Part shown: positions 19,979 to 25,834 of the stretch, piece by piece
How the letters are laid out: every line of letters starts with the position of its first letter
Position numbering within the stretch: the first letter of the stretch is position 1
From: TPA_inf: Saccharomyces
Taxonomy: Eukaryota
DNA length: 64,000 bases
Assembly: GCA_000146045.2 (NCBI GenBank)
Contig: BK006934.2
Location: 192,001-256,000 of the forward strand
Direction of reading: 5' to 3'
Made by a program: the position numbers and the translations under genes
Notes under the pieces: generated by a model
The model's input: only the letters and a program-made list of their open reading frames with translations
Told to the model about the DNA's origin: nothing
Databases searched by the model: none

Positions 19979-20534
19979 TTTGTTTCCTCCTTATCTATCT
20001 TTTCTCTCATTTTTTTCTTGTGAAGAAAAAAATTTGAATTTCATAGAGTGCGGTGCATATGTATATATCTATATATGTTTGAAGTGTATATTAAAAATAA
20101 AGTCATTATTTGAATATTGGTTTCTCGGTCTAAGAGCTTATACGTTTTAGACTGATCTGTTGTACTATCCGCTTCAAATAAATAGATCATTGAAAGTGAC
20201 GGGGATAACAGCATTTTACCTTTAAAAGACGTTCTCATAATACATTTTAGGATTAATACATATGCTTTTTTTTTATTCGAAATCTGGGGATTCTATACAG
20301 AGTTGTAAGTTAGGCAAACTAGAATTTGGTAATAATATTTTATTCTTGGGGCGACATATGGAGATACTTTATTTCCTTTTCTTAATTATTAACGTATACC
20401 TATAAATTAACAAAGTATCTAAACAAAATACATAAGTGTACTCAAACTGAGTAGAATCGTCGATTAAACTTCCTTCTCCTTTTAAAAATTAAAAACAGCA
20501 AATAGTTAGATGAATATATTAAAGACTATTCGTT

Positions 20535-20720
20535 TCATTTCCCAGAGCAGCATGACTTCTTGGTTTCTTCAGACTTGTTACCGCAGGGGCATTTGTCGTC
20601 GCTGTTACACCCCGTTGGGCAGCTACATGATTTTTGGCATTGTTCATTATTTTTGCAGCTACCACATTGGCATTGGCACTCATGACCTTCATTTTGGAAG
20701 TTAATTAATTCGCTGAACAT
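20535..20720 (-). CDS. CUP1-1: Copper metallothionein, 61 aa
   Basis: Protein MFSELINFQNEGHECQCQCGSCKNNEQCQKSCSCPTGCNSDDKCPCGNKSEETKKSCCSGK, with the Cys-X-Cys clusters of a Cu-thionein. Confidence 0.95.
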   Translation of the reverse strand: MFSELINFQNEGHECQCQCGSCKNNEQCQKSCSCPTGCNSDDKCPCGNKSEETKKSCCSGK

Positions 20721-20892
20721 TTTATGTGATGATTGATTGATTGATTGTACAGTTTGTTTTTCTTAATATCTATTTCGATGACTTCTATATGATATTGCAC
20801 TAACAAGAAGATATTATAATGCAATTGATACAAGACAAGGAGTTATTTGCTTCTCTTTTATATGATTCTGACAATCCATATTGCGTTGGTAG

Positions 20893-20954
20893 TCTTTTTT
20901 GCTGGAACGGTTCAGCGGAAAAGACGCATCGCTCTTTTTGCTTCTAGAAGAAAT
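20893..20954 (-). promoter_or_regulatory. CUP1 upstream activating sequence: palindromic Ace1/Cup2 sites (tcttttttgctggaacggttcagcggaaaagacg) plus HSE (ttctagaagaaa)
   Basis: Lies ~170-230 bp upstream of the CUP1-1 ATG on the coding strand. Both the inverted repeat and the TTCnnGAAnnTTC-type element are directly visible. Confidence 0.75.
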
Positions 20955-21184
20955 GCCAGCAAAAGAATCTCTTGACAGTGACTGACAGCAAAAATGTCTT
21001 TTTCTAACTAGTAACAAGGCTAAGATATCAGCCTGAAATAAAGGGTGGTGAAGTAATAATTAAATCATCCGTATAAACCTATACACATATATGAGGAAAA
21101 ATAATACAAAAGTGTTTTAAATACAGATACATACATGAACATATGCACGTATAGCGCCCAAATGTCGGTAATGGGATCGGCTTA

Positions 21185-22532: not shown

Positions 22533-22718
22533 TCATTTCCCAGAGCAGCATGACTTCTTGGTTTCTTCAGACTTGTTACCGCAGGGGCATTTGTCGTCGC
22601 TGTTACACCCCGTTGGGCAGCTACATGATTTTTGGCATTGTTCATTATTTTTGCAGCTACCACATTGGCATTGGCACTCATGACCTTCATTTTGGAAGTT
22701 AATTAATTCGCTGAACAT
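22533..22718 (-). CDS. CUP1-2: Copper metallothionein, 61 aa (second copy)
   Basis: Identical to the ORF at 20535-20720, 1998 bp downstream. Confidence 0.95.
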   Translation of the reverse strand: MFSELINFQNEGHECQCQCGSCKNNEQCQKSCSCPTGCNSDDKCPCGNKSEETKKSCCSGK

Positions 22719-22890
22719 TTTATGTGATGATTGATTGATTGATTGTACAGTTTGTTTTTCTTAATATCTATTTCGATGACTTCTATATGATATTGCACTA
22801 ACAAGAAGATATTATAATGCAATTGATACAAGACAAGGAGTTATTTGCTTCTCTTTTATATGATTCTGACAATCCATATTGCGTTGGTAG

Positions 22891-22952
22891 TCTTTTTTGC
22901 TGGAACGGTTCAGCGGAAAAGACGCATCGCTCTTTTTGCTTCTAGAAGAAAT
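22891..22952 (-). promoter_or_regulatory. CUP1 UAS (Ace1/Cup2 palindrome plus HSE), second copy
   Basis: Same sequence as 20893-20954, shifted by 1998 bp. Confidence 0.75.
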
Positions 22953-23182
22953 GCCAGCAAAAGAATCTCTTGACAGTGACTGACAGCAAAAATGTCTTTT
23001 TCTAACTAGTAACAAGGCTAAGATATCAGCCTGAAATAAAGGGTGGTGAAGTAATAATTAAATCATCCGTATAAACCTATACACATATATGAGGAAAAAT
23101 AATACAAAAGTGTTTTAAATACAGATACATACATGAACATATGCACGTATAGCGCCCAAATGTCGGTAATGGGATCGGCTTA

Positions 23183-25834
23183 CTAATTATAAAATGCATC
23201 ATAGAAATCGTTGAAGTTTGCCGTAGTAATACCCAGATTATCAGATTCCAAATCCTTGTCAATAATTATACTCCTTTGGACAACTTCTCTTTCCATTAAA
23301 AAATCTGAAATCTCCTTAAATTTTAAATAGATTCTGTTCAGTTCACTAACGGGGAATTTCAAGAGAACATTTTTGTTCTTCGCCGACTGACTATAATCTG
23401 TAACATTATTGTTATCAGAGTTTCTCGCAAAATTTTGTTTTTTCTTGCTAAATCTCAGCATATATTTAATCAGATTCAAAACCTTGTTGAAACCTTTAAT
23501 AGATTTGAAACTTCCGTTGCTATTCATTTCATCTCGTAAAAAGGATACGATAATTTCTATTTTTTTTAAAATTTCCAAAATCTTGTCATGAATCAATAGC
23601 AATTGAACATTAATCTCCTCATTTGAAAGATTTTTGTAAAATTCGTCATATAATATTACTTCACAACGTTGGAAAATAGCAAATGTGATTGCTATAAAAT
23701 TCTGTAAGATTTCAATAAAATGATTTGCGAATAAAAATTCTTTACCATTAGAATGAAAGCGATTATTGCCGCTTGAAAATGACTTTATCGACTTTATGGG
23801 GAAGATAAAATTAAATGTTATTGAGTAAAAAATGTGCATATTAGAAATAATTTTCATCAGATCCTTTGCACATCTTTCAGAGTTCGAGGTCTTATTGTTG
23901 TTAGAAGAATGTTGAACTGCCATGGACAAAGAGGATTCGTTTTGAACAAAAAGGAAAAAATTTGTATAAACAATGGTATTGATAAAATTTAAAGTGTCTT
24001 TCCATTCTTTTCTGACTTCGTTGTCATGAAAATATAAGTCTACTGTATTACTCACGCCCATAGTCAAGGTTTCTAACAGACTTTCAATTTTGGTTAAATT
24101 TACTGGCAAGTAGAAAGGAACACCTTGCAGAATATTTATCAATTTTGCTTGCGTTTCCAGTAATTTTAAATCGTTAGCAATTAAAGGAATGTCGTTCGTA
24201 TCAATAGAGGCAGGTATCGGAGATAGGTTTTCAGCAGCGGGTACCATGAATGAAGACTGACCTAGAAGCGAATGTCTTGAGTAATACATTTTTTTCAAAA
24301 AATGGAATAACTTGAAATCTTTTATCTGGAAGCTTAACAGACAGCTCAAATCTTCGTCTAAACTTGATTTATGATCATCATGCATGTACAGAGATTCATA
24401 AAATTTTGTGATGGCAATAAATTTGATTGTCTCTTGGTCATAATATTCCAGGTTTATCAATGTGATTTGGCTTCGAATCAACCTCAAATTATTCATTAAT
24501 GCCGAAACATGGTTATTAATAGCCTGCTTATTGAATAGGGTCATTGAATCGTTTAACAACAGTAGAAGCACAGTTAATTCGCCTAGTTTGGTCAGTTGAG
24601 ATAAAGGAAGATCGACCGTTGAGAATGAAGGACAGGTATCACCATTTGGAAAAGAGTTATGAACAAATTCTAGTAAGAGGGTTTTGTCAAAGATTGGCAA
24701 AAATTCTTCAATATTCAGATTGTTAAGGGATTCAGAGTTTAGTGTCTCAATAATTATTGCTTTTGGTGGGAAGTTAACTTTGCAAACTTCCATATATTGT
24801 TGGTGATTTTTATTGTTAGGAGGACTTACTTTGAACTGATTAATATGGCAGATATCGTGCAAAATATTATAGAACTTGAAAAGATAATGATCTCTAAAAA
24901 TGATGAAGTTTTTAGTGAAAAGGTAGTTGGGGGTATCCTTCAACGGTTTCACTTGGACTAAACTTTGCACATCTGTTATTGTGAGCGCTGTAAAGTATTT
25001 TTGTGAGGACTGAGAAGTCCTTGAAGTCTGATGATCAAATCCGGCTCTTTTACCGTCAACCTTGCCTTTCTTAGAATTCTCACCTGTTTTGTTAATTTTG
25101 TTTGCCGTGGTATTGTCGGCATTTAAATTCGATTTTTCTTTCAAACTTTTCAGTTGCAAGCTTTGTAAATCAAGCAATTTGTTTTTTAAAAAGTCTATCT
25201 CCTTGATTAATACTTCCTCTTGAGTAAACGGAGAAGTCATTAGATCGAAAACGGCCGAGTCTTGATTGATACCAACATTAAAAGAGTATGGGTTATCTGT
25301 ATAGTCAAAACTTTGAGCGTTAACCAGTTGTAATCGTGTGTTATATTCTCTAATCTGATCCATGGAGGGCACATCTGGACTATCGCTTCTCACAATAGTG
25401 TTTCCATGAACATTACTACTAACGGTACTACTATTCTGACGAGGAGCAGTATTATTATTGGTGTTATTATTCTGGTAGCTAGCGGCCTTGGTCCACTGCA
25501 TCGCAGTATCCACAGAGGGGTTGAACGAGAAGTTGAATGCCTCTATCGACGTTTGCATAATCGGATACTGCGTTTGAATCATTACGTTTTTCTGATTTAC
25601 ACCGTTTCCCTGACTAAAATGGTTGGAACCTTGGCCATTGCCGTGCGTGGACATCCCGGACGCAGAGGGCACAGCGACCATCTTACCAGGTCCATCTGGA
25701 TAAAAACAGTCCGGCTTGTTATACTTGACGCAATTCCCACATATCGGTTTTGCCCTGTCGCACCCGATCTTTCTCTTCCTGCATTGGGTGCAAGCAGGCG
25801 GCTTCCTCACTTTTCTCACTTGCATGTCCATCAT
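23183..25834 (-). CDS. RSC30: RSC chromatin-remodelling complex subunit with Zn2Cys6 binuclear cluster, 883 aa
   Basis: N-terminal CTQCRKRKIGCDRAKPICGNCVKYNKPDC zinc cluster. The start is the 5th codon (MMDMQ...) of the track ORF, which gives 883 aa. The 3' ~1.07 kb lies inside CUP1 repeat unit 2. Confidence 0.85.
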   Translation of the reverse strand: MMDMQVRKVRKPPACTQCRKRKIGCDRAKPICGNCVKYNKPDCFYPDGPGKMVAVPSASGMSTHGNGQGSNHFSQGNGVNQKNVMIQTQYPIMQTSIEAFNFSFNPSVDTAMQWTKAASYQNNNTNNNTAPRQNSSTVSSNVHGNTIVRSDSPDVPSMDQIREYNTRLQLVNAQSFDYTDNPYSFNVGINQDSAVFDLMTSPFTQEEVLIKEIDFLKNKLLDLQSLQLKSLKEKSNLNADNTTANKINKTGENSKKGKVDGKRAGFDHQTSRTSQSSQKYFTALTITDVQSLVQVKPLKDTPNYLFTKNFIIFRDHYLFKFYNILHDICHINQFKVSPPNNKNHQQYMEVCKVNFPPKAIIIETLNSESLNNLNIEEFLPIFDKTLLLEFVHNSFPNGDTCPSFSTVDLPLSQLTKLGELTVLLLLLNDSMTLFNKQAINNHVSALMNNLRLIRSQITLINLEYYDQETIKFIAITKFYESLYMHDDHKSSLDEDLSCLLSFQIKDFKLFHFLKKMYYSRHSLLGQSSFMVPAAENLSPIPASIDTNDIPLIANDLKLLETQAKLINILQGVPFYLPVNLTKIESLLETLTMGVSNTVDLYFHDNEVRKEWKDTLNFINTIVYTNFFLFVQNESSLSMAVQHSSNNNKTSNSERCAKDLMKIISNMHIFYSITFNFIFPIKSIKSFSSGNNRFHSNGKEFLFANHFIEILQNFIAITFAIFQRCEVILYDEFYKNLSNEEINVQLLLIHDKILEILKKIEIIVSFLRDEMNSNGSFKSIKGFNKVLNLIKYMLRFSKKKQNFARNSDNNNVTDYSQSAKNKNVLLKFPVSELNRIYLKFKEISDFLMEREVVQRSIIIDKDLESDNLGITTANFNDFYDAFYN

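Follow-up and report, generated by a model that had tools for sequence, protein, structure and literature searches.

The two-unit CUP1 locus of the S288C reference as a depiction of the Type 1 tandem array

The yeast rDNA, with about 150 units of 9.1 kb, is served by a dedicated Fob1/RFB system. The CUP1 array, for whose Type 1 form Fogel & Welch 1982 and Karin et al. 1984 are further references, resembles the rDNA in its tandem arrangement, an origin in each unit (putative in CUP1), replication-linked changes of copy number and homogenised internal units. Unlike the rDNA, CUP1 is without Fob1/RFB machinery, and its copy-number variation is stimulated by promoter activity and by H3K56 acetylation (Hull 2017, PMC5486974). 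For the Type 1 CUP1 array of S288c and W303, breakpoints without homology, an orphan A, seven additional T and a repeat of 1998 bp have all been described, and non-homologous end joining was concluded to be the origin (Zhao 2014, PMC4232551). The CUP1 arrays of Types 2-5 (1.8, 1.2, 1.9 and 1.6 kb; Zhao 2014), each of independent formation, amplify the same gene, with non-homologous junctions (3 bp at most) and expansion by homologous recombination, but their breakpoints and unit lengths are their own, unlike those of Type 1.

The stretch of DNA analyzed here, called the window, is 64,000 nucleotides long and corresponds to S288C chrVIII 192001-256000; adding 192000 to its coordinates gives the published chrVIII positions 212265..216250 (Hull 2017) and 213185-214249 (YHR054C). 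Positions 20264-24251 of the window are almost certainly the Type 1 CUP1 array as the S288C reference depicts it, with a single non-homologous origin, upkeep by homologous recombination and two units drawn by convention. The window agrees with the array of Zhao 2014 (PMC4232551) in the 1998-bp period, in the junction J1 from the interior of RSC30 to the CIC1-RUF5 intergenic region, in the orphan A and the seven additional T, and in its content: CUP1, the YHR054C remnant, the putative ARS810/811 and the two-unit SGD depiction. No difference was found between the window and the published Type 1 array. The presence of the array and its collapse in the reference are already known and are textbook matter. 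A further CUP1 unit of 888 bp, corresponding to window positions 20368-21255 and outside the five published sizes, was found at two loci of other assemblies (L006 and L012).

Self-comparison of the window showed two head-to-tail units with a period of 1998 bp: at this offset a single unbroken exact match of 1988 bp aligned 20266-22253 with 22264-24251, and no other long exact run was found. An exact repeat of 2 kb makes a chance origin impossible. TRF reported no tandem repeat at the array, because the unit period exceeds the longest period that it handles, 500 bp. Unit 1, the left-most of the Type 1 array (20264..22253), consists of GC, a T9 tract marking the true left edge (20266..20274, forward strand), as found in the unduplicated flank, and a core of 1979 bp. 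Unit 2 (22255..24251) consists of GC, the T16 tract of the internal junction (22257..22272, forward strand) and the same core, with zero substitutions; toward its right end it is made up of the 3' portion of intact RSC30. Between the units, at J1, lies the orphan A (22254), which in a three-way comparison of the breakpoints had a template in neither flank.

These results bear out the original prediction as to the period, the extent of the array, the identity of the units across the CUP1 ORF, the Ace1 UAS and the RSC30 3' fragment, and the position of the right boundary inside the RSC30 coding sequence, where it falls between codons 528 and 529. The units had also been said to differ only in poly-T length: the lengths, 9 and 16 T, were found as predicted, but the orphan A is a second difference, present at the internal junction. 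The left boundary does not lie in the poly-T tract, as had been proposed, but at the GC 2 bp upstream of it: the left edge reads ATAT followed by GC, and the internal junction GAAT-A-GC.

Each unit encodes a Cup1 metallothionein, as in Type 1 arrays. The CUP1-1 ORF (20535..20720, reverse strand) codes for a copper metallothionein of 61 aa matching Pfam PF11403 (E=2.9e-25) and PDB 1aqs (E=8e-29), and the CUP1-2 ORF (22533..22718, reverse strand), of the same sequence, has the same matches; the PDB entries matched by the ORFs were 1aqs, 1aoo and 1rju. Five Ace1/Cup2-type motifs upstream of CUP1-1 (20896..21037, reverse strand) form a putative copper-responsive UAS, and an equivalent cluster and putative UAS lie upstream of CUP1-2 (22894..23035, reverse strand). 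Both were found by pattern match with HTHNNGCTGD, which we take to be the Ace1 consensus and which marks a candidate Ace1/Cup2 UAS in each unit; this loose pattern gave 5 matches within 142 bp per unit, compared with 59 across the 64 kb. RSC30 (23183..25834, reverse strand) encodes a Zn2Cys6 protein of 883 aa that matches NP_011923.2 exactly, and its 3' 1069 nt (23183-24251) are inside unit 2. YHR054C (21185..22249, reverse strand), an ORF of 354 aa in which no Pfam domain was found, is the remnant of RSC30 codons 530-883 produced by the duplication, and has been termed a gene remnant (PMC12157680). The presence of an ARS in each unit has been stated previously (Hull 2017, PMC5486974; PMC12008805). 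A sequence search of the unit gave no 11/11 match to the ARS consensus and three 10/11 matches; the one that lies upstream of the Ace1 motif cluster, where RSC30 has its stop codon (23184..23194, reverse strand), is a candidate for the putative ARS810/811. No Rfam family was found in the array, RUF5 being without a model there, and ARAGORN detected no tRNA in it. The identification of the locus as a CUP1 array, and the predicted content of a CUP1 ORF, an Ace1-type motif cluster and an RSC30 3' fragment, were confirmed for both units.

That the two units as displayed are perfectly identical may be in part an artefact of the reference. The diagnostic site is 24123 (chrVIII 216123), in RSC30 codon 571, where the window has C (GGT, Gly); the paralogous site of unit 1 is 22125. 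Of 12 other Type 1 arrays, 11 have T at this site (GAT, Asp; G571D) in the terminal, RSC30-proximal unit and C in the internal units, the exception being an array of 4 units (L003) with C also in its terminal unit. The residue D571 is found in 12 of 14 distinct RSC30 variants, including proteins named for BJ4, SX2 and XXYS1, which are presumably wild Chinese isolates. An independent long-read assembly of S288c itself (GCA_016858165.1, 6 units) has T in the terminal unit and C in the 5 others. Along some 21 kb, comprising the two units with 7 kb to their left and 10 kb to their right, site 24123 is the sole difference between L015 and the window, and two further loci (L014 and L016) whose 10-kb right flank equals that of the window also have T at the equivalent position. 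In addition, reference release R63 (pre-2011) bore internal-junction sequence at the left edge of the array, and the R64 correction removed 7 T.

Taken on these data, the C at 24123 is probably a leftover of the collapse: the true RSC30 of S288C would carry T (Asp571), the common S. cerevisiae allele, and C would be confined to internal units, having spread among them through concerted evolution without reaching the edge unit. Less probably, the displayed identity is biological and homogenisation in S288C extends to the terminal unit. The terminal C of L003 is consistent with this second reading, as is the Gly571 found in full-length RSC30 of two other strains (L012 and P0015), but the terminal T of the long-read S288c assembly, the single difference from L015 and the T shared by L014 and L016 argue against it. 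So do the former left edge of the reference and the direction of the change, since polishing with collapsed reads can convert T to C but not C to T. No report of "RSC30 G571D" turned up in a literature search, and the nanopore CUP1 papers (PMC12008805 among them) make no mention of a terminal-unit SNP.

Internal units showed 0 mismatches among themselves in accurate assemblies and were homogeneous within and between strains. The original prediction had read the zero substitutions of the window as a sign of recent amplification or homogenisation; the count is correct, and the internal homogeneity seen elsewhere agrees with it, but the reference array is a composite, its left edge was once wrong and its terminal unit differs from those of 11 of 12 other arrays, and "zero substitutions" in the window alone is therefore weak evidence for that conclusion.

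Comparison of the junctions among assemblies showed the same scar, CATGAAT-A-GC-T(12-16), at all internal Type 1 junctions, with the orphan A present at every internal junction of every assembly examined. The T-tract was T16 at each of the 5 junctions in the long-read S288c assembly, likewise at the 5 that can be seen in L017, and 14-16 in other accurate assemblies; every Type 1 left edge read ATATGC-T9, and the unduplicated flank had T9-T10 in all haplotypes seen. The difference between T9 and T16 is that between a true single-copy edge and a junction scar, not random variation in length from junction to junction. At J1 the interior of RSC30 is fused to the CIC1-CUP1 intergenic region; the untemplated A is present there, and the T-tract exceeds that of the flank by 7. 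The RSC30-side breakpoint, CATGAAT followed by GAAGACTG, has no T-tract, and the two parental breakpoints have 0 bp in common, with 1 untemplated base at the junction: microhomology was not found.

In agreement with Zhao 2014, we infer that a single non-homologous joining linked a break between the two RSC30 codons at the right boundary with one in the CIC1-CUP1 intergenic region, the latter 2 bp upstream of the T-tract. The joining would have left the untemplated A and the lengthened T-tract as a scar, and every Type 1 junction in the strains examined would have inherited it.

A simple one-step end joining fails to explain the orphan A, the lengthening by 7 T and an 11-bp repeat that brackets the array. 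This repeat, TAATACATTTT, lies on the forward strand at 20238..20248, 16 bp outside the left boundary, and at 24282..24292, 31 bp outside the right boundary. It might point to an origin in two steps, which we consider unlikely: a microhomology-mediated duplication at the 11-bp repeat would give a unit of 2046 bp, and deletion or remodelling of its junction, with 56 bp replaced by A and 7 T added, would give the unit of 1998 bp. The arithmetic is exact (2046-56+1+7 = 1998), the repeat has just 2 copies in the 64 kb, on the same strand (empirical P ~0.001, post hoc), and synthesis-dependent MMEJ has been raised for the orphan A (Zhao 2014, PMC4232551). Against this, the predicted intermediate junction was found at 0 of 17 loci and in none of the metagenome contigs, an additional event is required, and the coincidence was itself spotted post hoc.

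The origin first proposed for this array, an unequal sister-chromatid exchange at poly-T microhomology, is in our view very unlikely. The left boundary does have a T-tract beside it, of one length at the edge and another at the junction; but the right breakpoint, CATGAAT followed by GAAGACTGACC, is without one, the nearest (T7) lying 41 bp farther out, and identity begins at the GC, 2 bp ahead of the left T-tract. The untemplated A and the lack of shared bases at the junction do not fit such an exchange, and Zhao 2014 (PMC4232551) reported no breakpoint homology and favoured NHEJ.

After a founding duplication by non-homologous joining had given two 2-kb copies, homologous recombination between misaligned units shifted the copy number by whole units, as published experiments indicate. 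Its routes are unequal sister-chromatid exchange, break-induced replication and single-strand annealing, and the same misaligned recombination kept internal units identical. Since tolerance of copper is set by Cup1 dosage, selection by copper favours a higher copy number.

The copy number of the array had been predicted to be collapsed in the window, and this is upheld by the literature and by other assemblies, on which the verdict for the window rests. About 15 CUP1 copies were given for S288c, with two depicted in SGD (Zhao 2014, PMC4232551), 11 in a PacBio assembly of S288c (Yue 2016 preprint, 10.1101/076562) and 13 in BY4741 (Hull 2017, PMC5486974). In ONT data the two reference copies had about 5-fold depth, with qPCR in addition (Barbitoff 2021, PMC8759820), and spanning nanopore reads gave 14-16 copies in S288C-family strains (nanopore papers including PMC12008805). 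Southern blotting, qPCR, PacBio and nanopore together place S288C-family strains at 11-16 copies. In other assemblies the 1998-bp unit was present in 2, 4, 5, 6, at least 10 and at least 17 copies. These data support the conclusion that the two reference units under-represent a real S288C-family array of about 11-16. The accompanying claim that assemblies usually collapse the array to two copies held for the under-representation but not for two as the usual end state: in short-read de novo assemblies the array was mostly reduced to a lone contig of less than 5 kb (59/80 blocks). That the sequenced strain has a genuine two-copy locus is highly improbable: the window does display two units, as do the assemblies of L002 and L015, but S288C, BY4741 and close relatives have 11-16 copies by four methods, the independent long-read S288c assembly holds 6 units, and the YJM assemblies with two units come from the 100-genomes series, in which natural isolates were deep-sequenced.

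The CUP1 array is a classic model of adaptive gene amplification and copy-number variation. For read mapping and variant calling at chrVIII 212-216 kb, the two units are placeholders for about 11-16 copies. The C/T difference at 24123 in the terminal unit is the only addition made here to the published description of Type 1. If the C of the reference is indeed a leftover of the collapse, the annotated S288C Rsc30 would be wrong by one residue (571), reflecting internal, non-functional copies. The site could serve as a natural tag of the array edge when the spread of homogenisation along tandem repeats is studied.

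Comparison of the window with itself at all offsets from 1985 to 2011 showed one long exact run only, of 1988 bp at offset 1998 (20266-22253 identical to 22264-24251). With one T-tract indel allowed, the array at 20264-24251 consists of unit 1 (20264-22253; GC, T9 and a 1979-bp core) and unit 2 (22255-24251; GC, T16 and the same core), separated by an orphan A at 22254, which is matched in neither unit. The offset scan and the unit comparison thus reproduce the coordinates, the period, the T-lengths of 9 and 16 and the zero substitutions of the original prediction. TRF reported no repeat at the array only because its maximum period, 500, is below the 1998-bp period.

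Each unit contains, on the minus strand, one 61-aa ORF (20535-20720 and 22533-22718) that matched PF11403, 'Yeast metallothionein' (E=2.9e-25), and the solved Cu-metallothionein structures 1aqs, 1aoo and 1rju. Upstream of each ORF lies a cluster (20896-21037 and 22894-23035) of five matches in 142 bp to HTHNNGCTGD, which we take as the Ace1-type consensus; the pattern has 59 matches across the entire 64 kb. The C-terminus of an 883-aa Zn2Cys6 protein encoded at 23183-25834 recurs unchanged in a 354-aa ORF (21185-22249); the full-length protein is an exact match to NP_011923.2, Rsc30p of S288C. The left neighbour of the array is CIC1, encoding a Ribosomal_L1-family protein. Adding 192000 to window coordinates reproduced the published chrVIII positions of the repeated region (212265..216250; Hull 2017, PMC5486974) and of YHR054C (213185-214249; PMC12157680). 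These gene identities and positions therefore place the window at chrVIII 192001-256000 of the S288C reference and identify the feature as the CUP1 array, as had been predicted, of Type 1 (the class with a 1998-bp repeat; Zhao 2014, PMC4232551).

Two other ORFs overlap each CUP1: a 57-aa ORF on the same strand in the +1 frame (20519-20692 and 22517-22690, both minus; YHR052C-B/YHR054C-B), for which peptides were detected, yet which was proposed to be dubious (PMC12157680), and a 64-aa antisense ORF (20510-20704 and 22508-22702, both plus). A putative ARS has been described in each unit (Hull 2017, PMC5486974; PMC12008805). Elsewhere in the window, Rfam found a 92-nt tRNA at 45848-45939 on the minus strand (56.7 bits), presumably an intron-containing nuclear tRNA, which ARAGORN did not report.

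The left flank of the array reads ACATAT|GC-T9-ATTCG, the unit-unit junction CATGAAT-A-GC-T16-ATTCG and the right edge CATGAAT|GAAGACTGACC. The parental breakpoints have no base in common; the junction contains one untemplated A and a T-tract 7 longer than that of the edge. The right boundary had been correctly placed inside RSC30, where it falls between codons 528 and 529 at a site with no T-tract; the left one, assigned to a poly-T tract, lies outside it, 2 bp upstream. Exactly these features were described by Zhao et al. 2014 (PMC4232551), who concluded unequal non-homologous end joining (NHEJ). Unequal exchange at poly-T microhomology, the origin first suggested, is therefore unsupported, being contradicted by the zero shared bases, the untemplated A and the T-free RSC30-side breakpoint. 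The founding step would have been an NHEJ-like event.

The 11-mer TAATACATTTT has only two copies in the 64 kb (20238-20248 and 24282-24292), lying 16 bp beyond the array on the left and 31 bp beyond it on the right (empirical P ~0.001, computed post hoc). The present junction cannot have formed by crossover at this 11-mer. Exchange between its two copies predicts a 2046-bp unit, and the junction of such a unit was not found in 17 loci from other S. cerevisiae assemblies or in metagenome contigs. The pair may be a coincidence or the trace of a synthesis-dependent microhomology step, which Zhao et al. 2014 (PMC4232551) considered for the orphan A.

In the same 17 loci (L001-L017), the scar CATGAAT-A-GC-T(12-16) is present at all internal Type 1 junctions, and all Type 1 left edges read ATATGC-T9; two haplotypes that lack a Type 1 junction have T10 in the left tract. 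The common scar and edge fit a single founding event that passed its scar on to the Type 1 junctions, in which case T9 and T16 would represent the true single-copy edge and the scar, not free variation among junctions. Among accurate assemblies, L001, L004 and L017 have T16 at almost every junction, and L010 and L016 have 14-16; values of 12-15 from indel-rich assemblies are probably homopolymer error. The otherwise error-free IMX2600 (L010) has 14, 14 and 16 T at junctions 11087, 13083 and 15081, and L016, also otherwise error-free, has T15 at one junction (9091). A degree of genuine slippage between junctions is probable.

An 888-bp CUP1 unit (window equivalent 20368-21255) was seen in L006 (8197-9183 / 9184 onward) and L012 (8196-9183 / 9184 onward), from assemblies GCA_030036295.2 and GCA_949124925.1. 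Its junction, CCAAAT|TTTATT, shows no microhomology, and in L006 the unit is mixed with a Type 1 junction. In size it matches none of the five types (2.0, 1.8, 1.2, 1.9 and 1.6 kb) of Zhao 2014 (PMC4232551).

SGD draws two repeats, and Southern blotting gave ~15 for S288c (Zhao 2014, PMC4232551). Other estimates are 11 units in a PacBio S288c assembly (Yue 2016 preprint, 10.1101/076562), 13 copies in BY4741 (Hull 2017, PMC5486974), ONT depth ~5-fold over two reference copies, with which qPCR concurs (Barbitoff 2021, PMC8759820), and 14-16 copies by spanning nanopore reads (two nanopore CUP1 papers, including PMC12008805). Among the fetched loci, Type 1 units number 2 (L002, L015), 4 (L001, L003, L010), 5 (L016), 6 (L004/L011, from GCA_016858165.1, whose listed strain is S288c), at least 10 (L005/L014) and at least 17 (L007-L009). 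Short-read assemblies mostly shrink the array to a lone contig of <5 kb (59 of 80 index blocks). The published S288C-family numbers, unanimously above two, and the six units of GCA_016858165.1 bear out the predicted collapse.

In gap-free, accurate assemblies, no first or internal unit departs from the window core at any of its 1979 bp (100% identity); internal homogeneity is therefore real, in line with the proposed homogenisation. Homologous recombination alters copy number by whole units (Zhao 2014, PMC4232551), CUP1 copy number variation is replication-linked and stimulated by CUP1 promoter activity and H3K56 acetylation (Hull 2017, PMC5486974), and copper tolerance is set by Cup1 dosage (Yue 2016 preprint, 10.1101/076562). 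What can be read from the sequence itself is the unit content, the junction scar, internal-unit identity and a copy number variable among assemblies. After founding, the array would have expanded and been homogenised via unequal sister-chromatid exchange, BIR or SSA; its extreme edges may be shielded because almost no homology lies beyond them, the T9 tract being 2 bp from the left boundary.

At the equivalent of 24123, the RSC30-proximal unit has T in 11 of 12 other Type 1 arrays (L001, L002, L004/L011, L005/L014, L006, L007, L010, L015, L016, L017), and all internal units have C (paralogous site in unit 1, 22125). A terminal C was found in the window and L003 only. The C>T change is nonsynonymous in RSC30 (G571D). 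Additional terminal-unit changes are 23418 G>A in L001 and L010 and others in L002 and L006. Asp571 occurs in 12 of 14 distinct RSC30 variants, including proteins named for BJ4, SX2 and XXYS1, strains that we take as wild isolates from China. Asp is therefore the common state and probably ancestral, and Gly571 is typical of internal remnant copies.

Between R63 and R64, according to the table of changes in Engel et al., two stretches were removed from the interval between CIC1 and RUF5-1 ('Deletion 212258 A' and 'Deletion 212270 TTTTTTT'), spaced exactly as A-GC-T9-T7. The R63 left edge therefore held internal-junction sequence, which marks the array as a composite assembly. R64 left codon 571 unchanged; at this site, 128 bp into the unit, short reads of ~14 internal copies would be expected to swamp the lone edge copy. 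Taken together, the terminal T elsewhere, the composite reference and the untouched codon favour, by a modest degree of confidence, a residual artefact as the source of C at 24123. Genuine homogenisation of the S288C edge unit, as may have happened in L003 with its terminal C, is a possible but rather doubtful explanation: the S288c-labelled long-read assembly GCA_016858165.1 has T in its terminal unit, as does L015, for which this one base is the sole difference from the window across 7 kb to the left of the array, the two units and 10 kb to the right. The 10 kb of right flank in L014 and L016 is also identical to the window. The 'RSC30' annotation in GCA_016858165.1 (L011 10001-20644) extends 10.6 kb over several units, with no contiguous translation to the deposited protein, and has the look of a transferred annotation that skipped to a different unit so that the reference protein is matched.

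No published report of the terminal-unit difference at 24123 (G571D) was found, nanopore CUP1 papers included. The CUP1 array itself is thoroughly known, and this edge-unit marker, with its bearing on one reference base, is the only possibly new item. If the base is an artefact, residue 571 (Gly) of the reference Rsc30 may come from array collapse.
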